DNA of 64,000 nt from Desulfuromonadales bacterium (GCA_029289095.1 JARFUG010000007.1:9297-73296); one strand, 5' to 3'; shown: positions 42,397 through 55,899, counted from the first letter of the stretch. Notes: generated by a model not told the origin, from the sequence alone. Numbers and translations are program-made.

Positions 42397-42855
42397 TCAG
42401 GTGCGCTCCAGCGCTTCCTTTCTCGGCAGGGTCTTTTGCGCATAGGACCAGATATTGAGCTGCTCCAGGGCGTAGAGCGCCAGACCTGCGAAAAAGACCC
42501 CCATGAAATGCCCCTCCAGGGCTCCTGCAAAGAGATAGAAGGGGTAGAAGACGGTTCGGAAGAAAAGGTGCAGCCAGTTCGATGACGGTTTCTGAGCGCC
42601 CGCGATGCGCCCCAGGATCAGTACGGCGGCAGAAAAGGTATAGGCGCCCACCGCGACGCTCGTCATGGCGACCGGGGGAGCCGCCCCCAGGATCATCCGG
42701 GCGCTTTCCCCCAAGGGGGCGAGCAGATCGGCCCCGCGGGAGAAGAAAAATATGGTGCTGACCAGCAGGAAAAGAGAGAGATCGCAAAGGCCCCGCCTGC
42801 ACAGGGCGTGGAGATCGGCGCCGGTCCTGTCGGTTGGATTCCTCTGGCGTTTCAT
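42397..42855 (-). CDS. Hypothetical 4-TM membrane protein; last gene of the cytochrome c/b operon
   Basis: 152 aa and hydrophobic. The gap to the cytochrome b gene is only 9 nt. Confidence 0.55.
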   Translation of the reverse strand: MKRQRNPTDRTGADLHALCRRGLCDLSLFLLVSTIFFFSRGADLLAPLGESARMILGAAPPVAMTSVAVGAYTFSAAVLILGRIAGAQKPSSNWLHLFFRTVFYPFYLFAGALEGHFMGVFFAGLALYALEQLNIWSYAQKTLPRKEALERT

Positions 42856-43554: not shown

Positions 43555-44607
43555 TTATCGTCGGTTCTTGCGGGTCAGAAATCGCAGCGTTCCGTGCCCC
43601 ACCGGCATGATCAGTCCGGCGGCCAGGATCGCCAGCCCGATATAGTTGAGGGTGGCGCTGCGGGTCGCTCCCACGATGTAGAAGTCGGGGGTCCCGTACA
43701 GGACATCGAGAACCGCCCCCTTCTCCACCGCAAGGCGTTCAAAGGAGCCGTCCTGGCGCGGGAAGGCGACGAAGCTCGTCTGCATCGCTCCGGGGCCGGA
43801 GGCGTGACAGAAGGTGCAGTCCCATCGGTTGGCGAGGATGCCGAAGTCGTGGGTGACGATCTCCGGAGTGAGCATCCCCTTGAGTCGCAGGTTGCGATTG
43901 TCCCTGTTGCGGTTGAAGCTCCGGAGCTCGGCCAGGGAGATGAAACCGTCGCCGTCGGTGTCGATCAGAGAAGAGATCTTCTCCTGCTCGCTCAAGAGTT
44001 TGAGATCTTCATATCCGGCGAGTTCAAAGGGGAGTCCCCGCGCCGGCGCTCCCGAGTCCGGGTGGAGCGGGCGTCGGGTGAGATACAGGGAGATGACGAT
44101 ATTCTCCGAGCCCGAATGGCAGGAGATGCACGGCAGCATCTCCAGGTGAAGAGCCGCCTGCGGCAGCCAGCTCCCATGGGAACGTACAAGGCCGGAGGTC
44201 TCGTGGCAGACGGCGCAGTTGCGGTTCATGTCGTGCCCGGAGATCGTCGTCGGCCCGCGCACGAGGTGGGGGTTGTGGCAGTCGCCGCAGTCGGCATATT
44301 GGGCGTGTCCGCTCTGGGCGTATTCTTCGTAGATGTCCTGATGGCAATCGAGGCAGCCGGCCCTGGACAGAGGCTGGCCGTCGTCGGGATGATCCCAGGT
44401 GACCGATTCGTGGCAGGCCACGCACCCCAGCCCCGCATGCGCGGTGGTGTCATAGCGCAAAGGATCGATCACGTAGGCGTCTCCCACCATCCCCGCATCG
44501 GCGTGACAGCTCACGCAGCTCTCGTCGTCCATCGCCGCCGTTTCAACCGGGGCGGCCAACCAGAGTGCCGCCAGCCCCAGAGAGAGAAATCCGATTTTGC
44601 GTCCCAT
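43555..44607 (-). CDS. Heptaheme c-type cytochrome with an internal EF-hand and a C-terminal TM anchor (CbcA-like)
   Basis: Signal peptide. Seven CXXCH motifs: CVSCH, CVACH, CLDCH, CGDCH, CAVCH, CISCH, CTFCH. DTDGDGFISLAE lies between hemes 6 and 7. C-terminal helix LNYIGLAILAAGLIMPV. Confidence 0.88.
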   Translation of the reverse strand: MGRKIGFLSLGLAALWLAAPVETAAMDDESCVSCHADAGMVGDAYVIDPLRYDTTAHAGLGCVACHESVTWDHPDDGQPLSRAGCLDCHQDIYEEYAQSGHAQYADCGDCHNPHLVRGPTTISGHDMNRNCAVCHETSGLVRSHGSWLPQAALHLEMLPCISCHSGSENIVISLYLTRRPLHPDSGAPARGLPFELAGYEDLKLLSEQEKISSLIDTDGDGFISLAELRSFNRNRDNRNLRLKGMLTPEIVTHDFGILANRWDCTFCHASGPGAMQTSFVAFPRQDGSFERLAVEKGAVLDVLYGTPDFYIVGATRSATLNYIGLAILAAGLIMPVGHGTLRFLTRKNRR

Positions 44608-44638: not shown

Positions 44639-44878
44639 TCAGCGCAGGGTCTGCCGGCACGACTCTTTCTTCCTCGTTGCGGACTCGCTCAGGAACTGCC
44701 AGAGGGCGACCAGGGCCGCATAGAGCTGCGCCACAACGATGATCGCGCAATACGCCAGGAAGAACTTGATGGTCAGTCCGCTGAAACCGTCCATGACGGT
44801 TCCTCCCGGGAAGGGGGTGAAGAAGAAAAATGCGAAGAGCAGCAGCATCATCCCTAGCCAGTAGATCTGTCGTTTCAT
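44639..44878 (-). CDS. Small two-TM membrane protein (79 aa)
   Basis: SD GAGGAG lies upstream. Hydrophobic segments WLGMMLLLFAFFFF and FFLAYCAIIVVAQLYAALVAL. Confidence 0.5.
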   Translation of the reverse strand: MKRQIYWLGMMLLLFAFFFFTPFPGGTVMDGFSGLTIKFFLAYCAIIVVAQLYAALVALWQFLSESATRKKESCRQTLR

Positions 44879-44956: not shown

Positions 44957-45199
44957 CTACTTGCGGGTGACCGATTCCACGGGAGCGAGCTCTTGGCTCT
45001 CCTGTTGCTGGCGTGCGGCCTTTCTGGCGCTGCGCAGAGCGGGGAGGACCTGGGCCAGAACGATCAGGGCGCAGAAGCCCAGAAAGATCAGAACGACCAG
45101 TGAACTGTTGTCCTTGCGCGCCTCGGCGGCGGCCAGGGCTGGGGAAGCCAGGGCCGAGAATGCGACTGCTGCGATGACTGCCGTCAACTTCTCTTTCAT
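44957..45199 (-). CDS. Small secreted/single-TM protein, family member A (80 aa)
   Basis: MKEKLTAVIAAVAFSALASPALAAAEA (signal peptide), then SSLVVLIFLGFCALIVLAQVLPAL. Its closest relative in the window is the ORF at 52531-52779. SD AAGGAG lies upstream. Confidence 0.65.
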   Translation of the reverse strand: MKEKLTAVIAAVAFSALASPALAAAEARKDNSSLVVLIFLGFCALIVLAQVLPALRSARKAARQQQESQELAPVESVTRK

Positions 45200-45225: not shown

Positions 45226-45627
45226 TTAATGGATGCTCAGCACGTTTAGGACATTTCTGAAAGCGCATTCGACAGCGGTGCGGATTTCCTCGCCGTCGCG
45301 GGCGTTCACCGGTTTGAGGGAGTGATAGAAAATCCCTTCGCGGCGGATCTTCTGCATGATCGGAAGAGGTTTTTCATCGGAAACAAGGATGATGGTCAAA
45401 GACCGATCACACCTCTTCATCAAGGGGATAAGGTCCTCGGCGCCGACCTTCTCGTCGAAATCGCTCCCGACCAGCACGACATGGGGCTTGTTCTTCAGGA
45501 GGTCTCCCAGGACATCCACGGCCGAATCGGTGGTCCTCACCTCGTATCCTGCCCGGGAGAGAACATTTGCAATGAGCCTGCGGGTGGCGGTATCCCGGTC
45601 GGCCAGGAGAACGCTTTTCTCTTTCAT
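45226..45627 (-). CDS. Stand-alone receiver-fold protein lacking the phospho-acceptor Asp (pseudo-receiver), copy 1
   Basis: 133 aa. A gapless alignment to the canonical REC at 46095-47504 places Gly (VVLVGSD) where Asp (VIFLDVR) sits. The Ser/Thr (IILVS) and Lys (LKP) positions are retained. Confidence 0.75.
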   Translation of the reverse strand: MKEKSVLLADRDTATRRLIANVLSRAGYEVRTTDSAVDVLGDLLKNKPHVVLVGSDFDEKVGAEDLIPLMKRCDRSLTIILVSDEKPLPIMQKIRREGIFYHSLKPVNARDGEEIRTAVECAFRNVLNVLSIH

Positions 45628-45657: not shown

Positions 45658-45894
45658 TCAACTCTCCTTGCCGGTGCGCACCTGCGCTTTTTTCCCGCGG
45701 AAGAATTCCCGCACCAGCGCACCGAAGAGCATCATCGCAGGGACGATCTGAAGGGCGATAATGGCGGCGATGAAAAGGAAGAAGATGGCGGGCATCAGAT
45801 TGCCCTCCCCTCCGACTCCCGCCAGGGAACCGAAGAAAATCGTTCCGTACGCGACCAGGGCGACGATGAAGCAACTGATGAATTTCTCTTTCAT
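45658..45894 (-). CDS. Small secreted/single-TM protein, family member B (78 aa)
   Basis: MKEKFISCFIVALVAYGTIFFGSLAGVGGEGNLMPAIFFLFIAAIIALQIVPAMMLF. Its closest relative is the ORF at 51812-52048. SD AAAGGAGGAAGG lies upstream. Confidence 0.65.
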   Translation of the reverse strand: MKEKFISCFIVALVAYGTIFFGSLAGVGGEGNLMPAIFFLFIAAIIALQIVPAMMLFGALVREFFRGKKAQVRTGKES

Positions 45895-45938
45895 GACCTT
45901 CCTCCTTTCACGGTGTCGGCGTTTGCTCTTGTGTAAGA

Positions 45939-45954
45939 GCAACGCCCGTACCCA
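45939..45954 (-). promoter_or_regulatory. Candidate sigma-54 promoter of the small-protein / pseudo-receiver / cytochrome c-b operon
   Basis: The minus strand reads GGGTAC-GGGCG-TTGCT. The invariant GG and GC are present with exact N10 spacing, and the TTGC -12 box is present. It lies 45 nt upstream of ATG 45894. Confidence 0.55.
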
Positions 45955-46094: not shown

Positions 46095-47504
46095 TCAGCC
46101 CGATCTCTCGATTCGGTGCTTTTTCAGCAACGCATAGAGGCGGGATTGGGAAAGGCCGGACAGACGACAGGCTTCGGGAATGTTCTCTTCAGCCAGCGCC
46201 ATCAATTCCTGCAGGTAATGCTTTTCAGCCTGGGTATAGACGTTGTCGCGATAATCCTGAAGCTTCGGGAGTCTCCTCAGGGGTTGTTCGGAAGCGGCTT
46301 CATCCGGAAGTGCATTCCGGCGCACCGAGTGGCGCATGATCTCGGCGCGGAAGGACGGAGGGAGGTGTTTGGGGTAGAGAGTCGGTTCGAAACGTGCTGC
46401 GGAAAAGGCGCGCACCAGGGTGTTCGCCAGTTCGCGCACATTGCCGGGCCAGTGATAGGTGAGCAGGGCGTCGAGGAATTCGGGGGAGAATCCTTTGGAC
46501 GCCACGCCGTCCCCCTCACAGAGCCGGTCGATATGGATCCTCGTCAGTTCCCGGATGTCCTCGGCGCGCTCGCGCAAGGGGGGGAGCTCGATGGTGAAGG
46601 AGCGGAGGCGAAAAAGCAGATCGCTGCGAAACAGATTCCTGGCCACCATATCGTCCAGGTCGCGGTTGGTCGCGGCCACCAGCCGGAAGTCGCTCTCGAC
46701 CTCGCGGGTGCTCCCCAGCGGACGGAAGCGCCTCTCCTGCAGAACCCGCAGGAACGTCTTCTGAACCGATAGAGGGAGTTCGCCGACTTCATCGAGAAAG
46801 AGGGTGCCGCCGTGCGCCTGCCGAACGAGACCTTCCTGCGGTTTTTCCGCGCCGGTGAACGACCCCTTCTCGTGGCCGAAGAGGAGGCTTTCGGCCAGTG
46901 TTTCGGGCAGGGCCGCGCAGTCGACGATGACGAAATTCTTTTCCGCCCGCGGGCTGTTGCGGTGAATCGCCTGGGCGAAGAGCTCTTTGCCCGTCCCCGT
47001 CTCACCGGTGATCAGAATGCTGGCATCGCTGGCCGCCGCCTGGGCGAGCAGATTCAGGCAGGCCTTGAGCTTGGGGCTGTTGCCGCAGATGTCCTCGCGC
47101 TTGAGCGCAACGATGTTCTGCCTTGGGTCGGACTTCTTCTCGCGGCGGTACTGCAGGGCGCGCTCCAGCGAAAGGGTGATCTCCTTGCTCGAGGAACCCT
47201 TCTCGATGTAGTCCCAGGCGCCCGATTTCATCGCCAACTCCGCCCCGTCCGGCTCGCCGAAGCCGGTGATGATGATCACCTCGGGGTTCGAGGCTGCCTG
47301 GGCGAGGCGCGGCAGCGCCTGCAGGCCGTTGCCGTCTGGCATGCGCACATCGAGAAAGATCACGTCGAAATCCTCCGAGGCGCTCTTCTCGAGCCCCTCG
47401 GTCAGGCACGACGCACTGGCCACCTCGTGCCCCAGGCGCGAAGCCATGAGGGAGAGCGACGAGACCATCAGATCATCGTCATCGATGATCAGCACCTTAG
47501 CCAT
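46095..47504 (-). CDS. Sigma-54-dependent response regulator (REC-AAA+-Fis HTH), activator 1
   Basis: REC domain (LIIDDDD...VIFLDVRMPDG), GETGTGKE, GSFTGA, and C-terminal HTH (IPEACRLSGLSQSRLYALLKK). Confidence 0.9.
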   Translation of the reverse strand: MAKVLIIDDDDLMVSSLSLMASRLGHEVASASCLTEGLEKSASEDFDVIFLDVRMPDGNGLQALPRLAQAASNPEVIIITGFGEPDGAELAMKSGAWDYIEKGSSSKEITLSLERALQYRREKKSDPRQNIVALKREDICGNSPKLKACLNLLAQAAASDASILITGETGTGKELFAQAIHRNSPRAEKNFVIVDCAALPETLAESLLFGHEKGSFTGAEKPQEGLVRQAHGGTLFLDEVGELPLSVQKTFLRVLQERRFRPLGSTREVESDFRLVAATNRDLDDMVARNLFRSDLLFRLRSFTIELPPLRERAEDIRELTRIHIDRLCEGDGVASKGFSPEFLDALLTYHWPGNVRELANTLVRAFSAARFEPTLYPKHLPPSFRAEIMRHSVRRNALPDEAASEQPLRRLPKLQDYRDNVYTQAEKHYLQELMALAEENIPEACRLSGLSQSRLYALLKKHRIERSG

Positions 47505-47561: not shown

Positions 47562-49937
47562 TCATCTGTCCTCTTTCCCGCTCTTCTCATTCCCCCCCCC
47601 GTCCAGAACGCGACGGATGATCCGCGCCATCTCGCTCCTTTCCGTCGGTTTCATGACGACCTCGCGGATGCCGATGGTGCGTGCGATCTTTTCGGTGACG
47701 CCGCTCTGGGAAAAGGAGCCCAGACCGGTGCAGAGGATGACGGGGATGTCGGGGCGCAGGGCGAGGACCTCCAGCGCAAACCTCTCTCCCGTCAGATGGG
47801 GCATTGTCTGGTCGGTGATGACGAGATCGAAGCGATCGGGCTGAGCCCGGAAGACTTCCAGGGCCTCCAGGCTGCTCGTCCCAGCGACGACTTCGTAACC
47901 GAGGTTCTCCAGCATCCGCTGGTTGGACGAGACGATATCGGCCTCATCGTCGAGAAACAGGATGCGCTCCTTCCCGCCGGGTGGCGGAGGCGATGCCGGA
48001 TACTCCTGCTCTGCGTCGCCTGCCGCATCACAGCGGGGCAGATAGACCCGGAAGGTCGTCCCCACCCCCGGTTCGCTGGTGACGTCGATCGCCCCGCCGT
48101 GGCTTCTGACGATGGCGTGGACCACCGAAAGGCCCAGGCCCGTTCCTCGCCCCGGCGCCTTGGTGGTGAAGAACGGGTCGAAGATGCGCTCCATCGTCTT
48201 TCGGTCCATCCCGTGCCCCGTGTCGGCAACGCTCAGACAGACGTAGCGCCCGGGGGGGAGCCCCATCGAGTTGTCGCTCCCCAGATCGCTGTTGCCCATG
48301 AAGATTTCGAGTCGCCCCCCATGCTCCTGCATGGCGTCGGCGGCGTTGGTGCACAGGTTCATGATGACCTGGTGGATCTGCGAGGTGTCGGCGTGGACGA
48401 AGCCGATCCCGTTGGTCCGGTGCAGAGGGATCTCGATCGTCGTCGGGAGGGAGGCTCGCAGCAGCTTCAGACACTCCCTGGCGATCAGATCGATGCGTAC
48501 CGGCTGACGCTCCTCTTCCTTCTGGTAGCTCAGGGTGAGGATCTGGCGCACGAGACTCCTGGCCCGGAACCCCGCCTTCAGAACGATTGCCAGATGCTCC
48601 CGCAGCGCCGAGCCTTCCGGGGCGTCATCCATCGCCATTTCGGTGTTGGTGATGATGGCTGCCAGGATGTTGTTGAAGTCGTGGGCGATCCCTCCGGCGA
48701 GCGTCGCGATCGCCTCCACCTTCTGGGCCTGGCAGAGCTGCCTTTCGAGCTGGACTTCGTAGGTGAGATCCCTCACGACGGCGGCGTAGGCCGTCGTCCC
48801 CGATGGTTCGCTCACCGGCGAGACTTTTACCTCGATGTCGTACAGGGTTCCGTCATTCCGGCGGTTCGCCAGGCGTTCGAAGCGACTCTGTCCGGTGTGG
48901 ACAGCATCGCTCATGATCTGGAAAAAGGATCTGTTCGTCCCGACCTTCTCGACATTGCGCACGTTTCTTCCAATCAGCTCTTCCCGGCCGTACCCGCTGA
49001 TCGTTTCGAAAGCCGGGTTGACGTAGTGAATGAACCCTGCGGTATTGAAGGTGAGGATGCCGTCGGTTTCCTGCTCGACGATCGTCGCCAGCAGGGTCCT
49101 CTCCCTTTGCGTGCGCTCCTTGTCGCGGCGCATCCGCAGCGTGGCGATGCCGTAGGCGAGATCGTCGGCAAGCCCCTTGAGGAGATCGAGTTCCCGACCG
49201 TCGAAGGCGTCGGGCTCGCCGGCGAAGATGACCAGAGCGCCGATGACCCGGGCCTCGATGCTCAACGGGAGTGAGGCCGATGATGCGTAACCGAGCCGCA
49301 GGGCCTTTTCGCGCCATGGCCCCCACTTCCTGTCGGTTAGTATATGGCGTGCGATGTGCGGCTCCGCCGAGCGGATGGCGTGGCCGGTCGGTCCCTGGCC
49401 CAGTTCGTCGTCTCCCCACGAGACGCGGATCGATTCGAGGTATCCGTGCTCGTCCCCCCATTGAGCCGCAGGTCGGACGGTCTTCTGGGCGTCGTTTTCG
49501 GCCAGTCCGACCCAGGCCAGGCGATATCCCCCCGACTCGACGATGATGCGGCATACATCGGTCATCAGGGCCTGCTCGCTTTCGGCGCGCACAACGAGCT
49601 GACTGCAGTCGCTGCGCGCCTTCAGTGCGCGATTGACCCGGTGAAGCGTCTGCTGAGAGGCGAGGAAGTTATTTTCCGTATTGCGGATCAGGTAAAACAG
49701 GAAGCCGCCGGTGAAGATCAGGCCGGCATAGCACAGGATGTATTCTGCCCGGCGAACGCTTTCCGACAGGATGAGCCACTCCGAAAAGAAAAAGAGGGTG
49801 GAGAAGATCCAGACGGCTGCGATCAGGAGGTAGATCGTGGTAATCGGAAGAGTGTCGGCCCTCGCCTGGAGTTGCATGCTCACCTGCTCAGTCGACGTCA
49901 GTTGGTATTTCCCCGACCCGCAACCCTGCAAAGACAA
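47562..49937 (-). CDS. Hybrid sensor histidine kinase (TM-GAF-PAS-HisKA-HATPase-REC)
   Basis: N-terminal TM helices, a GAF-like region, PAS domain (ETDGILTFNTAGFIHYVNPAF), H-box GGIAHDFNN, G-boxes DTGHGM / GTGLGL, and C-terminal REC (ILFLDDE...LVITDQTMP). The start is uncertain (49937 or 49877). Confidence 0.88.
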   Translation of the reverse strand: MSLQGCGSGKYQLTSTEQVSMQLQARADTLPITTIYLLIAAVWIFSTLFFFSEWLILSESVRRAEYILCYAGLIFTGGFLFYLIRNTENNFLASQQTLHRVNRALKARSDCSQLVVRAESEQALMTDVCRIIVESGGYRLAWVGLAENDAQKTVRPAAQWGDEHGYLESIRVSWGDDELGQGPTGHAIRSAEPHIARHILTDRKWGPWREKALRLGYASSASLPLSIEARVIGALVIFAGEPDAFDGRELDLLKGLADDLAYGIATLRMRRDKERTQRERTLLATIVEQETDGILTFNTAGFIHYVNPAFETISGYGREELIGRNVRNVEKVGTNRSFFQIMSDAVHTGQSRFERLANRRNDGTLYDIEVKVSPVSEPSGTTAYAAVVRDLTYEVQLERQLCQAQKVEAIATLAGGIAHDFNNILAAIITNTEMAMDDAPEGSALREHLAIVLKAGFRARSLVRQILTLSYQKEEERQPVRIDLIARECLKLLRASLPTTIEIPLHRTNGIGFVHADTSQIHQVIMNLCTNAADAMQEHGGRLEIFMGNSDLGSDNSMGLPPGRYVCLSVADTGHGMDRKTMERIFDPFFTTKAPGRGTGLGLSVVHAIVRSHGGAIDVTSEPGVGTTFRVYLPRCDAAGDAEQEYPASPPPPGGKERILFLDDEADIVSSNQRMLENLGYEVVAGTSSLEALEVFRAQPDRFDLVITDQTMPHLTGERFALEVLALRPDIPVILCTGLGSFSQSGVTEKIARTIGIREVVMKPTERSEMARIIRRVLDGGGNEKSGKEDR

Positions 49938-49986: not shown

Positions 49987-51399
49987 TTACGAAGTCGGGC
50001 CTTCGCGTCCGGAGATCCCCTGTTTTTTCAGCAAAGCCTGAAAGTTGGGGCGCAGCATGCCGACTTCCTTGGCCGCCCGGGTGACGCTCCAGTCGTTGCG
50101 GTTGAGCGCCTCCAGCAGGAAGGCCCGCTCCAGCGATTCCACCGCACGCACGCGCAACTGGCGTTTTTTGAGTTTGAGCTCTTCATGGCTGTGGGGGATG
50201 TGATCGAGCGGGGAGGCCCTTTCCTCCCCCGGGGGGTGCAGTTCGAGATCTTCGCGCTGGATGAATTCCTCCTCGGTCAGGACGACCGCCCTCTCGATGA
50301 GGTTCTCGAGCTCCCGGACATTGCCGGGGAAGTGGTAATTCTCGAGCATCCTGAGAGCTTCGGGGGCGATCCCCTTGATTTCCTTGCCGAGCTCCTCGGC
50401 GAAGTGCTTGATGAAATGCGCCGTGAGCAGGCGCAGGTCCCCCGATCTCTCGCGAAGCGGAGGCAGGTCTATGGGGATGATGTTGAGGCGGAAAAAGAGA
50501 TCGTCCCGAAATTTCCCTTCGGCGACGAGGTCCCGCAGGTTGCGGTTGGTGGCCGCCACGAGGCGGATGTTGATCGGAACGGGTTGCGTCCCCCCGATGG
50601 GGGTCACCTCGCGCTCCTGAAGCACTCGCAGCAGCTTGGCCTGGGTGGTGAGACTGATGTTGGCGACCTCGTCGAGAAAGAGGGTGCCGTTGTCGGCGAT
50701 CTTGAACAGGCCGGACTTGGTCTGGACCGCTCCGGTGAAGGAGCCCTTGACGTGGCCGAAGAGTTCGCTCTCGAGCAGGTTCTCCACCAGTGAGGTGCAG
50801 TCGACGGCGACAAAGGGGTAATCGCGCCTTGCGCTGTTGCGATGGATCGCCTGGGCGACGAGTTCCTTGCCCGTTCCGCTTTCGCCGGTGATCAGCACGG
50901 TGCTGTCGGTCGGGGCCACCTGCAGGATGCGCCGGTAGACTCGCTCCATCTCGCGGCTGGCGCCGATGAAGCGGTCGAATCCCTTGAAGTCCCTCAGCTC
51001 TTTTCTGATGTAGATGTCGTCGAGGAGGATGACCTTCTGCTCCAGCGCCGACTGAACCTTCTCGGCGATCTCCTCGGGAGTGAAGGGCTTGGCGATGTAG
51101 TCGACGGCGCCGTTCTTCATCGCCTCGACTGCCGTGTCGACCGTCGAGTACCCCGTGATCATGATGATCGGGACTTCGGGCTGGGTGGTTTTGATGTGTT
51201 TCAGAACTTCGATGCCGCTCATGCCGGGCATCTTCAGGTCGGTAATGACCAGGCCGAACTGCTGCGTGGTCATTCTTTCAACAGCCAGCGCGCCGCTGGC
51301 GAACAGTTCGACCGAATATCCCCTCCCCTCGAGGATGCGCCGCAGTCCCTGCCGGATCACGGCATCGTCATCAACAACCAGAATGTTGAGCTTTTCCAT
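49987..51399 (-). CDS. Sigma-54-dependent response regulator (REC-AAA+-Fis HTH), activator 2
   Basis: [12 protein letters not shown]...[24 protein letters not shown], and C-terminal HTH ([21 protein letters not shown]). SD GAGGAG lies upstream of ATG 51399. Confidence 0.9.
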
Positions 51400-51707
51400 C
51401 CGGCAGGCTCCTCGTATAGGTGCAAACAGTGCAAACAAAATCCCTCTAGAAACAATTTAATTGTGCCTAATGCAGTCTAATGTAGCAATTTTTGCGAGTC
51501 AAGGGATAAAAGCCGCTTCCCTGGGGGTGTATAGCAGAATCATACACTGTCGAAAGAGGAATGGAAGCATAGAAAAAACGTGCAGATGCACATTTTTCCG
51601 CGATTCCCGCCGGCCTTCGCTTCTGACGGGGGTGCACAAATTTTTTATACGTTCCAGAGGGCAACGCGACGAGAGCGAAAGTTCTTCTGGCCGGAATAAG
51701 CTCGTAA

Positions 51708-51737: not shown

Positions 51738-51753
51738 TGGCACGCCCTCTGCA
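51738..51753 (+). promoter_or_regulatory. Sigma-54 promoter of the small-protein / pseudo-receiver / c3-FeS-NrfD operon
   Basis: TGGCACG-CCCT-CTGCA with exact GG-N10-GC spacing, 60 nt upstream of ATG 51812. Confidence 0.7.
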
Positions 51754-51811: not shown

Positions 51812-52048
51812 ATGAAAAACATCCTCAAGGCAGCCCTCGTCGTTGTACTGAGCAGCTCGACCGCTTTCGCGGCAGGAGCGGGGCAGGGCGAAGGTCTCAG
51901 CACCCTGACCATCCTCTTTCTCGTCTTCGGAGCCACCATCCTCGTCTTTCAACTCGTTCCCGGGATCGCTCTTTTCGTCTCCATGATCCGGGGGCTTTTC
52001 TCGCGCAAGGAGGCTATCGACGCGGTGAATGCGGGCGAAAAAAATTAG
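51812..52048 (+). CDS. Small secreted/single-TM protein, family member C (78 aa)
   Basis: MKNILKAALVVVLSSSTAFAAGAGQGEGLSTLTILFLVFGATILVFQLVPGIALF. SD AGGAGG lies upstream. The longer track ORF (51725) would include the promoter, so it was rejected. Confidence 0.65.
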   Translation: MKNILKAALVVVLSSSTAFAAGAGQGEGLSTLTILFLVFGATILVFQLVPGIALFVSMIRGLFSRKEAIDAVNAGEKN

Positions 52049-52099: not shown

Positions 52100-52486
52100 A
52101 TGCTGGGACTTCTCATCGCAGATGAAAATGTGGAATCCAGAAAACAGATGGCCGACCTTTTCATCGAGGCGGGATACAACGTAACCGTGACAAACTCGGC
52201 CGCCAACGCACTCTATGGAATTCTCAAGAGAACAGCTCAGGTCGTGATCCTGAGCAGCCAGTTCGACGAGATTACGGCCACGGAGCTCATCCCCATACTC
52301 AAGAAATGCAACCGCAAGCTCACTATCATCCTGGTTTCCGGCGACCTGTCTCTGTCTCTGCTTCGAAAGGTCCGAAAGGAAGGAATTTTCTACCACGCTC
52401 TCAAGCCGGTGGAGCCCGAAGATCGAGAGGAGATCCGACAGGTCGTCCAGTGCGCCTTCAACAACCTGTCAAGTTCGATGGTTTAG
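52100..52486 (+). CDS. Stand-alone pseudo-receiver, copy 2
   Basis: 128 aa, colinear with the protein at 45226-45627 (LIPxxKxCxRxLTIILVS, EGIFYHxLKPV, EEIRxxVxCAF). Ser occupies the phospho-acceptor position (VVILSSQ). Confidence 0.75.
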   Translation: MLGLLIADENVESRKQMADLFIEAGYNVTVTNSAANALYGILKRTAQVVILSSQFDEITATELIPILKKCNRKLTIILVSGDLSLSLLRKVRKEGIFYHALKPVEPEDREEIRQVVQCAFNNLSSSMV

Positions 52487-52530: not shown

Positions 52531-52779
52531 ATGAAAAAGCCCGCAACGCCCCTCATGACTGTCTGCATGCTCCTGGCGGCAGCCCCCGCATTTGCCGTCG
52601 ACACGACCCAGGTTTACAGCAGCGGCATTCTGGTCCTCGTATTTCTCGGGATCTGCGCCCTGTTCGTCGTCTCTCAACTGATTCCCGCCATGATGATGCT
52701 TTTGGGGATGGTCAAGGGGGTCTTCAAAGGCAAGAGGATCGAAGCGGTCGCCGAGGCCGAGAAGAAGAATCTGGGCTGA
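52531..52779 (+). CDS. Small secreted/single-TM protein, family member D (82 aa)
   Basis: MKKPATPLMTVCMLLAAAPAFAVDT (signal peptide), then SSGILVLVFLGICALFVVSQLIPAMMM. SD AAAGGAG lies upstream of ATG 52531. Confidence 0.65.
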   Translation: MKKPATPLMTVCMLLAAAPAFAVDTTQVYSSGILVLVFLGICALFVVSQLIPAMMMLLGMVKGVFKGKRIEAVAEAEKKNLG

Positions 52780-52818
52780 GTGCAGCAACCGACGTTCACA
52801 CCTAAGGGAGGTTTCTCC

Positions 52819-52998
52819 ATGGATGCCATCATGTCGCGGTTTTTAAACTCGGTCGGTGAATACAAGAGCGTCTACACCCTGGTCGACTTCTACCAGTACA
52901 TCAAGGGGGTGGAATACCTCCTGATCGTCGCTTTCTTCATCGTCTTTGTGAAGTATTTCAAATATATCGACGCGCCGCAGCAGAAGAAGGAGCACTGA
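52819..52998 (+). CDS. Small single-TM membrane protein (59 aa)
   Basis: SD AAGGGAGG lies upstream of ATG 52819. Hydrophobic helix YLLIVAFFIVFV. It occupies the same operon position as the ORF at 44639-44878. Confidence 0.45.
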   Translation: MDAIMSRFLNSVGEYKSVYTLVDFYQYIKGVEYLLIVAFFIVFVKYFKYIDAPQQKKEH

Positions 52999-53045: not shown

Positions 53046-53534
53046 ATGCATACAAAACGCAAATGGTTGGTTGGCGCAATCGTTCTGGCCGCCCTCTGGA
53101 GCGCCCCTCTCGAGGAAGGTGCAGCGCAGGATTTTCCCGAATTCATCGAACTGGATTCCCTGAGTGATCTCTACGGTCCGGTCCCCTTCGATCATCTGAT
53201 GCACCTCGATTTCGGGAGCTGCGCCGATTGCCACCATCACGGCACGGGCGTTCCGGTGCAGGATGCAAACTGCGCCCGCTGTCACAGCAACGCAGAGACG
53301 GTGCCGATCATCAGTTGCAAAGAGTGCCACGCACGCGATCCCTTCTCAGCCACGGATATCCGGGAGAAAGAGGCAGATCTCCACCTCTATCATCGCGACA
53401 AGCCGGGGCTGAAGGGGGCCTATCACCTGAGCTGTCTCGGATGCCACGAAGAAATGGGCGCCCCGACCGGGTGCAACGACTGTCACGTCAGGACCAAGGC
53501 GGGCGAGGCCTTCTTCCGGGGCGGCCCCCGGTGA
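53046..53534 (+). CDS. Periplasmic c3-type (class III) multiheme cytochrome, five CXXCH motifs
   Basis: Signal peptide, then CADCH, CARCH, CKECH, CLGCH and CNDCH within 162 aa. Confidence 0.85.
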   Translation: MHTKRKWLVGAIVLAALWSAPLEEGAAQDFPEFIELDSLSDLYGPVPFDHLMHLDFGSCADCHHHGTGVPVQDANCARCHSNAETVPIISCKECHARDPFSATDIREKEADLHLYHRDKPGLKGAYHLSCLGCHEEMGAPTGCNDCHVRTKAGEAFFRGGPR

Positions 53535-53617: not shown

Positions 53618-54553
53618 ATGAAAGGAATCAGTCGAAGAAGGTTTCTGGCGGCTAGTCTGGCCGGAGGCGCGGCGACAACGCTGAGCGTGACGAAGGAAGC
53701 CTGGGGAGCCTCTTCGTTTGACGGCTACCCGGACGGAATGGGGGTCCTGGTCGATCTGACCCGGTGCGTGGGGTGCCGCTCCTGCGAGGCGGCCTGCAAC
53801 AAGGAGCAGAATCTTGCCGCTCCGGCCGAGCCCTTTGACGATATGTCGATCTACGACAAGCGCTTTCACGGGCAGAAGCGCCGCACCGACGAAAACTCCT
53901 ATACCGTGGTGAACCGCTACGAGAAGGACGGAGCCAAACCGGTCTATCGCAAGATCCAGTGCAACCACTGCAACGAGCCGGCATGCCTGACCTCCTGCTT
54001 CACCAGCGCCTACAAGAAGACAAAAGAAGGGGCGGTCACCTACAACTCAAAGGTCTGCGTCGGCTGCCGCAACTGCATGGTCGCCTGCCCCTTCGCGATC
54101 CCGGCCTACAGTTACTCGAGCGCCTTCAACCCCGAGATCAAAAAATGCGTCTTCTGCCACGAGACCCGGCTCAAGAACGGACAGCCCCCGGCGTGCGTCG
54201 ATGCGTGCCCCCAGGAGGTGATGACCTTCGGAAGGCGAAGAGACCTGATCAAGATCGCCAACGACCGGATCCGCACCCGGCCGGGACGCTATGTCGACCA
54301 CATCTACGGTGAGCACGAGGTCGGCGGCACAGCCTGGCTCTATCTTTCGGATCGCCCCTTCGAGGAGGTCGGTTTCGACACTACGCTGAGCAAGGAGCCG
54401 ATCATCTCCAACGTCAAGGGATTTCTCTCGACGGTGCCGATGGTCCTGGCCATCTGGCCGGCCCTTTTCACCGGATTCCATCTGCTGTCCAAGAAGCAGG
54501 ACCACGGACACGGAGAGCACGCCCACTCGGCGCAGGAGGAGGACGAAAAATGA
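53618..54553 (+). CDS. Tat-exported 4x[4Fe-4S] ferredoxin subunit (NrfC/HybA/PsrB-like) with C-terminal TM anchor and His-rich tail
   Basis: Twin-arginine signal SRRRFLAAS. Cys clusters CVGCRSCEAAC, CNHCNEPAC, CVGCRNCMVACP and CVFC...CVDACP. Helix VPMVLAIWPALFTGF. Tail DHGHGEHAH. Confidence 0.85.
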   Translation: MKGISRRRFLAASLAGGAATTLSVTKEAWGASSFDGYPDGMGVLVDLTRCVGCRSCEAACNKEQNLAAPAEPFDDMSIYDKRFHGQKRRTDENSYTVVNRYEKDGAKPVYRKIQCNHCNEPACLTSCFTSAYKKTKEGAVTYNSKVCVGCRNCMVACPFAIPAYSYSSAFNPEIKKCVFCHETRLKNGQPPACVDACPQEVMTFGRRRDLIKIANDRIRTRPGRYVDHIYGEHEVGGTAWLYLSDRPFEEVGFDTTLSKEPIISNVKGFLSTVPMVLAIWPALFTGFHLLSKKQDHGHGEHAHSAQEEDEK

Positions 54554-55899
54554 AACGGCACATTATGCATGGCGGCAAAATCGTCGATTCCGAGTACAAG
54601 TCCGAGGAGAACGAGGCGAAGAAAAAGTGGAGCCTCATGGAGAAGCTCCTTCTCGGCCTGACGCCGCGCCAGTACCTGGCCCAGGCGATACGAAATCCGT
54701 TCAACTGGATCCTGGCGGCGATCTTCGCCATCGGAATCCCTCTGATCCTCGGCCGGTTCGTCTTCGGACTGCACTGGATCACCCACAGCTCCAACGATTA
54801 TCCCTGGGGCCTGATCCTCGCCTTCGGACTTTTCACCATGGTGCCGCTGTCGGCCTCGGGGTTCATGCTCGGCACGGCGGTGGAGATCTTCGGCCGCCAC
54901 GACTTCCACCCCATCGAGCGCCTGGCTCTGCTCAACGGCCTGCTCGGTTACTTCTTCGCCGTCATCTTCCTGATGGTCGACCTCGGACAGCCTTGGCGTC
55001 TGCCCTACCCGATGGTCGTCTCCTTCGGAACGGCCGCCGTCCTCTTCCTCGTCGCCTGGCACGTCGCCACCTACCTCTCGGTGCAGATCGCCGAGGTCTC
55101 GGTCTCCTTCTTCGAGTGGATCGGCTGGCCGCAGGGGGCGAAGTTCATCCGCAAGATCATCGTCGGGCTGACCGTGGCGGGGATCATCCTCTCCACCCTG
55201 CACCAGGGCGCCCTGGGCGCGCTCTTCACCTACGCCCACGGCAAGCTTCACCCCCTGTGGTACTACGCCTCATTTCAGTGGATCTACTTCTTCTGCTCCG
55301 CCATCCCCGCCGGCCTGTGCATGGTCATTGCGGTGAGCACCATCGTAAAGAAGACAATGGCCTGGCGCTGCGACGACAACTTCATGGACAACCTCGATTC
55401 GCTCACCCTGAAGCTGGCCAAGGGCGCGAGCCTGGGTCTGATCACCTACCTGGCCATCAAGATGATCGGGGTCGCCCATTACAACCTGTGGGGTTATCTG
55501 GCCACCGGTTGGGGGCAGTGGTACCTGCTCGAGATGTTTGTCGGCGTCGTGCTCCCCATCGCCCTGTTCGGCTACGCTCTGCGGCACAACAAGGCGGGGC
55601 TCGCCCGGTTCACCGCATTCCTGACGATCTTCGGCGTCGCGCTGAACCGGATCAACACCAGCCTGATCGCCTACAATTACAAGATCTATCACGAGATCCC
55701 TCACTGGCGTGAAGTCATCGTGACCCTGACGATCTTCGCCATCTACATCGTGGTCTACCGCTTCATCCTCTACCGTCTGCCGATCCTCTACACCTGGAAG
55801 ACGGCGCCGCAGACCGCCGAAGAAACGGTCGAAGAGCCGGTCTACATCCACTCGGGAGCGGAGCCGAGGCCGGTCAGCATGTATCGGGAAATGAAATGA
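54550..55899 (+). CDS. NrfD/PsrC-family polytopic quinol-interacting membrane subunit
   Basis: 449 aa with about 10 TM helices. The start overlaps the FeS-subunit stop (ATGA), the typical partner arrangement for NrfC-like proteins. Confidence 0.8.
   Translation: MKRHIMHGGKIVDSEYKSEENEAKKKWSLMEKLLLGLTPRQYLAQAIRNPFNWILAAIFAIGIPLILGRFVFGLHWITHSSNDYPWGLILAFGLFTMVPLSASGFMLGTAVEIFGRHDFHPIERLALLNGLLGYFFAVIFLMVDLGQPWRLPYPMVVSFGTAAVLFLVAWHVATYLSVQIAEVSVSFFEWIGWPQGAKFIRKIIVGLTVAGIILSTLHQGALGALFTYAHGKLHPLWYYASFQWIYFFCSAIPAGLCMVIAVSTIVKKTMAWRCDDNFMDNLDSLTLKLAKGASLGLITYLAIKMIGVAHYNLWGYLATGWGQWYLLEMFVGVVLPIALFGYALRHNKAGLARFTAFLTIFGVALNRINTSLIAYNYKIYHEIPHWREVIVTLTIFAIYIVVYRFILYRLPILYTWKTAPQTAEETVEEPVYIHSGAEPRPVSMYREMK

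Follow-up and report, generated by a model that had tools for sequence, protein, structure and literature searches.

A 64,000-nucleotide stretch of DNA from a Desulfuromonadales bacterium (GCA_029289095.1 JARFUG010000007.1:9297-73296; the window, hereafter) encodes two small single-domain proteins that have the fold of CheY-like response regulator receivers and lack the aspartate at which such domains are normally phosphorylated. Each gene lies between genes for two membrane micro-proteins, and each of the resulting three-gene groups stands at the head of a respiratory operon preceded by a σ54-type promoter element. Relatives of the two proteins form a large family that has lost the same aspartate, and natural gene fusions join the receiver to either of its neighbours. 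We propose that the receiver and the micro-proteins make up a membrane module that may act, through protein contacts rather than phosphorylation, on the σ54 activator or kinase encoded nearby.

Receiver domains without the acceptor aspartate

Copy 1 (45226..45627, minus strand) is a protein of 133 residues and copy 2 (52100..52486, plus strand) a protein of 128. In searches with profile hidden Markov models (HMMs), both matched the receiver family PF00072 (Response_reg), scoring 37.1 and 39.7 bits respectively against a gathering score of 30.2 bits. AlphaFold2 models of both proteins contain five strands and five helices in the canonical (βα)5 order of CheY. The model of copy 2 had a predicted local distance difference test score (pLDDT) of 87 and a predicted template modelling score (pTM) of 0.82; strand β3 spans residues 48-52 and ends at Ser52, β4 spans residues 75-80 and ends at Ser80, and β5 (residues 96-101) is followed by Lys102. 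The model of copy 1 (pLDDT 74) places β3 at residues 50-54, with Gly54 as its last residue. When the models were compared with known structures using Foldseek, both superimposed on Spo0F with a root-mean-square deviation of approximately 1.5 Å over about 117 columns and a template modelling score (TM-score) of 0.8-0.9, and the pseudo-receiver of FrzS was found among the matches. Both open reading frames (ORFs) are genuine CheY-like receiver domains. They are the only members of their family in the window, with expectation values (E) of 1e-67 and 1e-63, the next receivers being found at E of about 1e-5. The two copies are 48% identical over 121 residues by BLASTP (E = 9e-43) and 45% identical overall in a MAFFT alignment, slightly more than the figure of about 40% given in an earlier note on this DNA.

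The residue at the phospho-acceptor site was the same in every comparison made. Gly54 of copy 1 and Ser52 of copy 2 lie opposite D54 of Spo0F in phmmer alignments, and opposite the acceptor aspartate of the window's two bona fide NtrC-type receivers in MAFFT alignments. When CheY and Spo0F were aligned to the family profile with hmmalign, Gly54 and Ser52 again occupied the column of CheY D57 and Spo0F D54. The acidic pair that follows β1 (D12 and D13 in CheY) is Ala-Asp in both copies (Ala9-Asp10 in copy 1 and Ala7-Asp8 in copy 2), the second acid alone being kept. The serine of β4 (S83 and S80) and the lysine of β5 (K105 and K102) are retained, as is a histidine three positions before the lysine (H102 and H99). 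Alignments and models therefore agree with the earlier note, which had described receivers with glycine in one copy and serine in the other in place of the canonical aspartate, a single conserved acid in the N-terminal pocket, and an intact β4 serine/threonine and β5 lysine. The HMMER and AlphaFold comparison that it had suggested was run, and gave Gly54 and Ser52 as the acceptor-site residues.

Another aspartate lies close by, in the conserved FDE motif, and the earlier note had recognised that its own reading would fail if this residue were found at the acceptor site. The FDE aspartate is four positions beyond the acceptor column (D+4), and neither the HMM alignment nor the models place it at the site. 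In the model of copy 2 the β3-α3 loop contains a small hairpin with this aspartate at its tip, and in 23 of 64 fused relatives (see below) Gly, Ser, Asn or Cys takes the place of the aspartate; because of this position and these replacements, we do not regard it as a displaced acceptor. Since both the acceptor aspartate and the first metal ligand are gone, the two proteins are predicted to be unable to take part in ordinary His-Asp phosphotransfer, that is, to be phosphorylated at the canonical site.

A conserved family joined to membrane micro-proteins

Relatives were sought in a scan of species representatives, one genome per species. This yielded 299 stretches with relatives, mostly from Geobacteraceae and Desulfuromonadales, together with a few Syntrophales bins. 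A profile search against sequences clustered at 50% identity found 43 clusters at E < 1e-30 and 203 at E < 1e-10, and a search with copy 2 by itself hit 903 clusters at 90% identity, whose annotation goes no further than 'response regulator' or 'response receiver'. Among 95 unique sequences from 81 loci, 59 have Gly at the acceptor column, 35 have Ser and one has Ala; in each aligned case among 216 further cluster representatives the residue is Gly or Ser. Aspartate was present in none of the approximately 310 close relatives checked; it was seen at this column in a few distant representatives of the 50%-identity clusters, in which the acidic pair is still missing. At the first position of the pocket, all family members have Ala or Val. 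The two other conserved positions of the active site are more variable: in the 95 relatives the β4 serine/threonine position is Ser in 81, Ala in 10 and Thr in four, and the β5 lysine position is Lys in 72 and Arg in 23 (about one-quarter).

Other parts of the domain are under tight constraint. Near-invariant blocks were found from α3 to β4 (LIPLLKKC.R.LTIILVS), from the end of α4 through β5 (R.EGIFYH.LKP) and in α5 (EE.R.AV.CAF), while the β3-α3 and β4-α4 loops are acidic and the proline usually present at D+4 has been lost. Judged from these alignments, loss of the aspartate is a trait of the family and not a sign of decay. Being recognised by PF00072, and having lost the acceptor aspartate family-wide as a conserved trait, the proteins are pseudo-receivers. 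That they are functional, which the earlier note had argued from shared blocks in the two copies, is upheld by purifying selection, by the near-invariant blocks and by intact reading frames across hundreds of clusters. The arrangement that it had called distinctive is real; it is not peculiar to the source genome, however, and belongs instead to a large conserved family of the Desulfuromonadales and Geobacteraceae. In public annotation members are labelled 'response regulator', 'response receiver', 'DNA-binding NtrC family response regulator' or 'histidine kinase', and the last two of these labels are misleading.

A pair of cysteines (C73 and C121 in copy 1, Cys70 and Cys118 in copy 2) is invariant in close relatives and was considered as a possible redox sensor. 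One or both cysteines are replaced in several fused relatives, for example P0059, P0067, P0068 and P0069, and the idea was therefore set aside.

The micro-proteins encoded before and after the receiver, here called TMa and TMb, are paralogues of one another and of a third protein, TMc1, which is encoded in one of the two clusters in the window. All share the same plan, in which two helices separated by a periplasmic loop of approximately 10 residues are preceded by a short basic N-terminus and followed by a basic tail. The first helix is hydrophobic, and the second carries the pattern F.GF(C/G)..I(I/V)..Q..PA. Scans of Pfam and NCBIfam assigned the micro-proteins to no family, the one match being a weak one to HmcD by a 72-residue ORF that follows TMb in the second cluster.

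Natural fusions connect these proteins to the receiver. In more than 60 clusters, a receiver, a linker and a TMb-type hairpin are joined in a single protein of 220-250 residues. Complete genomes encoding such a fusion include those of Citrifermentans bemidjiense Bem, C. bremense and Geoanaerobacter pelophilus; the assemblies for Geomonas limicola and G. oryzae also encode one. The fused gene of C. bemidjiense lies exactly between the genes for TMa and the cytochrome CbcA, and the rest of its operon is organized as in cluster 1 of the window (described below). Fusion of TMa to the receiver was found in one cluster, with 21 members from independent samples. A triple fusion, P0061, joins all three parts; it comes from one contig of 4 kb that carries no neighbouring Cbc genes, and is anecdotal. 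Three long apparent fusions (P0049, P0077 and P0099, of more than 300 residues and with a TMc-like C-terminus) were not counted, as they contain a low-complexity stretch that resembles an out-of-frame reading of TMb; they are probably artefacts of gene calling or frameshifts in contigs of high GC content. Matches of the TMb profile to receiver genes were likewise ignored as artefacts, the profile having included receiver sequence from fused ORFs.

Because the receiver is found naturally fused to either micro-protein, the prediction that the receiver and two micro-proteins form one unit is well supported. If each micro-protein is a hairpin with both termini in the cytoplasm, the receiver would be cytoplasmic in both types of fusion. 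The gene order would then correspond to that of a four-helix membrane protein split into three genes, with the receiver in the central loop on the cytoplasmic side. The earlier note had expected the pseudo-receivers to act through protein-protein interaction. The fusions give this direct backing as far as contact between receiver and micro-proteins is concerned; further partners, and the direction of any regulation, we infer.

Operons headed by the module

Gene order around the receiver is conserved. In the 81 related loci a σ54 element is followed by TMa, the receiver, TMb and sometimes TMc, and then either by genes for the cytochromes CbcA and CbcB or by genes for a cytochrome c, an iron-sulphur (FeS) protein and HmcC. 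The layout in which CbcAB follows the cassette was seen in 30 of the related loci. The whole order, from TMa to the respiratory genes of either kind, is kept in nearly all related loci that are long enough to judge. Upstream sequence sufficient to look for a promoter was available for 78 cassette heads. All 78 have a σ54 element 50-150 nucleotides (nt) upstream of TMa that matches at least 8 of 11 consensus positions, and in 74 of them at least 9 of 11 positions match; among 310-nt windows drawn at random from these loci, only 4.3% do as well as 9 of 11.

In Trichlorobacter and some Geobacter, a gene for a PAS histidine kinase is directly followed by an additional cassette that has a σ54 element of its own and no respiratory genes immediately downstream. 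Tandem arrangements were observed at a number of Trichlorobacter and Geobacter loci (L025, L030, L035, L040, L045-L047, L050, L056, L057, L063 and L067). At these a σ54-driven cassette of TMa, receiver, TMb and HmcD-like genes comes after the PAS kinase gene, and a second cassette, approximately 2 kb further on, heads genes for cytochrome c, FeS protein and HmcC.

Both clusters in the window contain the micro-protein genes and a -24/-12 element, in agreement with the earlier description of a receiver set between two membrane micro-proteins at the head of each σ54-type respiratory operon. Cluster 1 is encoded on the minus strand throughout, in the order hybrid kinase, activator, σ54 element, TMa1, pseudo-receiver, TMb1, TMc1, CbcA, CbcB and a conserved ORF. 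The hybrid histidine kinase (47562..49937) has the domain organization GAF-PAS-HisKA-HATPase-REC. NtrC1 (46095..47504), an NtrC-type σ54 activator with a canonical receiver domain, is encoded directly upstream of the first cassette on the same strand. The candidate σ54 -24/-12 element GGGTACgggcgTTGCT (45938..45953) is 59 nt upstream of the ATG of TMa1 (45658..45894), a membrane micro-protein of 78 residues that has two hydrophobic helices and ends in a basic tail, and whose gene is preceded by an AGGAGG ribosome-binding site. After the pseudo-receiver come TMb1 (44957..45199; 80 residues), a hairpin paralogue of TMa with the motif FlGFCALIV..Q..PA, and TMc1 (44639..44878; 79 residues), a third membrane micro-protein related to TMa and TMb. 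They are followed by a periplasmic cytochrome c of the CbcA type, which has seven CXXCH motifs and is anchored in the membrane at its C-terminus (43555..44607), and a CbcB-like membrane cytochrome b matching PF01292 (42865..43542).

The last gene of the cluster, a conserved ORF of 152 residues with no Pfam match (42397..42855), directly follows the CbcB-like gene. Its relatives were found after CbcB in most CbcAB loci, and also 1-2 kb downstream of Hmc/Cbc4-like genes, and it may be a further conserved part of these respiratory operons. In the CbcA-like cytochrome, an EF-hand-like loop, DTDGDGFISLAELRSF, was noticed at residues ~213-231 (PF13202, E = 8e-5; PF00036, E = 5e-4; below the gathering score). 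A calcium-binding loop would be unusual in a periplasmic multihaem cytochrome.

The cbcBA operon of Geobacter sulfurreducens has the order GSU0597-GSU0596-GSU3489-cbcA-cbcB and a BccR-dependent σ54 promoter, according to its description (Joshi, Chan and Bond, bioRxiv 10.1101/2021.04.15.440034). Copy 1 is placed as GSU0596 is, between two small hypothetical genes and upstream of seven-haem CbcA and CbcB, and a σ54 motif and an adjacent NtrC-type activator gene are present at its cassette, the activator being co-directional, not divergent. By gene content and order, cluster 1 is the predicted counterpart of the Geobacter cbcBA operon, with copy 1 in the place of GSU0596. The exact five-gene cbcBA layout, with a divergent activator, was found in Geobacter hydrogenophilus (L017). 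One family member (L033) was found on a contig of 1053 bases (DYQT01000510.1) binned as Draconibacterium orientale, of the Bacteroidota; this may be a case of mis-binning, or the module may accompany cbcBA homologues outside the Desulfuromonadota.

Cluster 2 is headed by the second cassette, on the plus strand, and a divergent gene on the minus strand encodes a second NtrC-type σ54 activator, NtrC2 (49987..51438), with the layout of bccR. The σ54 -24/-12 element TGGCACgccctCTGCA (51738..51753) is a good match, and the motif starts 74 nt upstream of the ATG of TMa2 (51812..52048), a hairpin micro-protein of 78 residues with an AGGAGG ribosome-binding site upstream of its gene. The pseudo-receiver is followed by TMb2 (52531..52779; 82 residues), also a hairpin, and by the 72-residue ORF for a small hydrophobic protein with the weak HmcD match (52780..52998), the true start of which is probably at 52819 or 52831. 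Further along the same strand are genes for a class III type cytochrome c with five CXXCH motifs (53046..53534), a ferredoxin subunit of the HmcB/CbcT type with 4Fe-4S dicluster domains, exported by the twin-arginine translocation (Tat) pathway (53618..54553), and an integral membrane, quinol-interacting subunit of the HmcC/NrfD type (54550..55899). The HmcC match of this last subunit, at 338 bits, is below the equivalog cut-off of 550. Because an HmcD-like ORF, a cytochrome c, an FeS protein and an HmcC/NrfD-type subunit follow TMb2, cluster 2 is predicted to encode an Hmc/Cbc4-like quinol oxidoreductase. It may not be a strict orthologue of Cbc4, since its cytochrome has five CXXCH motifs and CbcS of the G. 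sulfurreducens Cbc4 complex (CbcSTU) is a tetrahaem protein belonging to the NapC/NirT family.

Possible function and comparison with known systems

Comparison of receivers between loci links them to the type of activator encoded alongside. Receivers beside a divergent activator of the NtrC2 type are 69% identical whether they head a CbcAB or an Hmc/Cbc4-like complex, whereas these receivers and those that head CbcAB beside a co-directional activator of the NtrC1 type are 53% identical. On these figures, the receiver sequence appears to track the neighbouring activator type and not the respiratory complex.

We propose the following mechanism. The pseudo-receiver and the two hairpin micro-proteins would be made together from the σ54 promoter, and would assemble as a four-helix membrane bundle carrying the pseudo-receiver on its cytoplasmic face. 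So placed at the head of operons for putative menaquinol:cytochrome c oxidoreductases (CbcBA in cluster 1 and the Hmc/Cbc4-like complex in cluster 2), the module would make contacts without phosphorylation, through the conserved α4-β5-α5 region. The most likely target would be the neighbouring NtrC-type σ54 activator or its kinase, and the module would in this way tune expression of the low-potential respiratory operon that it heads. Our confidence that it is such a phosphorylation-independent feedback or input device, working through protein contacts at the membrane, is evenly balanced. A regulatory role is favoured because the same module heads two structurally unrelated complexes and because the receiver sequence follows activator type; that the kinase-adjacent σ54 cassettes stand without respiratory genes is an additional reason.

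Several points weigh against this proposal. The co-variation of receiver and activator type could reflect shared descent of a promoter-proximal block rather than functional contact. Residues of the α1 helix usually set kinase specificity, and when the MAFFT alignment was examined by eye, the α1 helix of the pseudo-receivers had no obvious likeness to that of the neighbouring activators. The possibility that the pseudo-receiver is a kinase decoy mimicking the cognate regulator was rejected on the same comparison, the helix having no evident similarity to either activator. Co-transcription with cbcBA, which is very highly expressed in G. sulfurreducens, would also fit a stoichiometric accessory subunit. 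Finally, the proposed orthology of copy 1 and GSU0596 rests on synteny.

The serious rival to a regulatory role, although we consider it clearly the less probable, is that the module has no regulatory role and serves instead as an accessory to, or assembly factor for, quinol:cytochrome c oxidoreductases. On this view the pseudo-receiver would form a cap in the cytoplasm, and the micro-proteins would act as additional membrane subunits or as chaperones. This would be consistent with the module being co-transcribed with the structural genes, and preceding them, at nearly all loci, with induction of the G. sulfurreducens operon as a whole and to very high levels, and with the presence of a small hydrophobic subunit, HmcD, in Hmc-type complexes. 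It does not readily explain why the module heads two complexes as different as a cytochrome b with a seven-haem cytochrome c and an NrfD-type protein with FeS and cytochrome c subunits, why the receiver sequence follows the regulator rather than the complex, or why stand-alone σ54 cassettes follow a kinase gene and have no respiratory genes immediately after them.

A more specific form of the regulatory proposal, and one that we put forward tentatively and as somewhat less probable than an accessory role, is that the module is a split four-helix sensor of the menaquinone pool, membrane potential or Cbc activity, which would signal to the σ54 activator without phosphoryl transfer. Sensing might take place through the conserved helices bearing Gln, Pro and Cys, and the activator might be held at the membrane or released from it. 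If true, this would represent a new kind of signal input for NtrC-type activators, and one that times the switch of Geobacter to its lowest-potential pathway.

It is improbable that the receiver is still phosphorylated, at a non-canonical site such as the FDE aspartate at D+4, the pocket aspartate, Ser52 or the invariant histidine three residues before the lysine. The β4 serine and β5 lysine positions and one pocket aspartate are retained, the vestigial active site is rich in acidic residues and a hybrid kinase is encoded nearby, all of which would suit such a reaction. However, the first pocket acid is Ala or Val family-wide, the lysine position is Arg in 23 of 95 relatives, and the FDE aspartate is both replaced in the fused relatives noted above and, in the model of copy 2, held away from the end of β3. 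Least probable is that the proteins are relics of duplicated receiver domains, in decay and themselves without function, an explanation that accounts for the lost catalytic residues and is contradicted by the conservation of the family, which includes hundreds of clusters with intact reading frames, near-invariant blocks such as EGIFYHxLKP, conserved gene order and fusions maintained in complete genomes.

The quinol oxidase CbcBA allows Geobacter to respire close to the thermodynamic limit; a ΔcbcBA strain stops reducing Fe(III) citrate at -0.21 V. CbcBA is turned on only when the redox potential is low. To our knowledge, how low redox potential is sensed for this switch is not known. The first three genes of the cbcBA operon have so far been treated as encoding two hypothetical proteins and a 'response regulator'. 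Because the module they appear to encode has a canonical site predicted to be unphosphorylatable, is tied to micro-proteins and travels with the activator type, it is a concrete and testable candidate for the missing sensing or feedback step in expression of the lowest-potential quinol oxidase. It also adds a well-populated and genetically tractable example to the bacterial pseudo-receivers. Aspartate-less receivers are already known as a class, and the GSU0596 gene is visible in a well-studied operon. The family-wide loss of the acceptor aspartate, the constant presence of two paralogous hairpin micro-proteins beside the receiver, natural fusions of receiver and micro-protein, and the modular association with activator type all appear to be undescribed in the literature consulted. 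In the available portion of the cbcBA account, GSU0596 is called an 'RpoN-dependent response regulator' and nothing is said of a missing aspartate, micro-protein partners or fusions (bioRxiv 10.1101/2021.04.15.440034); other literature on GSU0597, GSU0596 and GSU3489 consists of a few mentions, as co-regulated genes in transcriptome lists.

The closest known system is the cbcBA operon itself. Cluster 1 shares with it a small protein, a receiver-only protein and a second small protein, followed by an anchored seven-haem CbcA and a cytochrome b, CbcB (dihaem in G. sulfurreducens), as well as a σ54 promoter and an adjacent gene for an NtrC-type activator (BccR in G. sulfurreducens). It differs in that the activator and a hybrid kinase are encoded upstream on the same strand and in having a third micro-protein; the bccR-like divergent activator of the window is paired with cluster 2 instead.

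In the Psp system, PspA and the small membrane proteins PspB and PspC act on the σ54 activator PspF. The resemblance is one of analogy, with no homology implied: a σ54 operon lies beside the gene for its own activator, and its first genes encode a cytoplasmic adaptor and small inner-membrane proteins. The logic of feeding the membrane or energetic state back to the activator may be similar. However, PspA is a coiled-coil protein and does not have the receiver fold, PspF is without a receiver domain, and the operon contains no respiratory genes. A second comparison is with Rrf1, which is receiver-like. The rrf1 and rrf2 genes are located downstream of the hmc operon in Desulfovibrio vulgaris and affect its expression (Keon et al. 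1997, cited in bioRxiv 10.1101/2023.11.02.564894). Here, too, regulator genes are linked to an operon of the Hmc type for cytochrome c, FeS and NrfD-type proteins. They lie downstream of it and not at its head, and no micro-proteins have been reported with them.

Receivers without the aspartate make up approximately 4-6% of all receiver domains (Maule et al. 2015, PMC4395418; Bourret et al. 2025, PMC12632262). Examples of the class are FrzS, CmrT, NblR and WhiI. Known pseudo-receivers act by protein contacts, and the mechanisms of bacterial pseudo-receivers are largely unknown (PMC12632262). The family described here resembles the class in its match to PF00072, its (βα)5 fold, the replacement of the acceptor and the expectation of protein-protein contacts, and its acidic β3-α3 and β4-α4 loops and loss of the proline at D+4 are among the typical features listed in PMC12632262. 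In contrast to the opposite tendency reported there, the GSU0596-type family loses DD1 and keeps DD2. It is further set apart by being single-domain and apparently tethered to the membrane by separate or fused hairpin micro-proteins, and by its link to σ54-driven respiratory operons.

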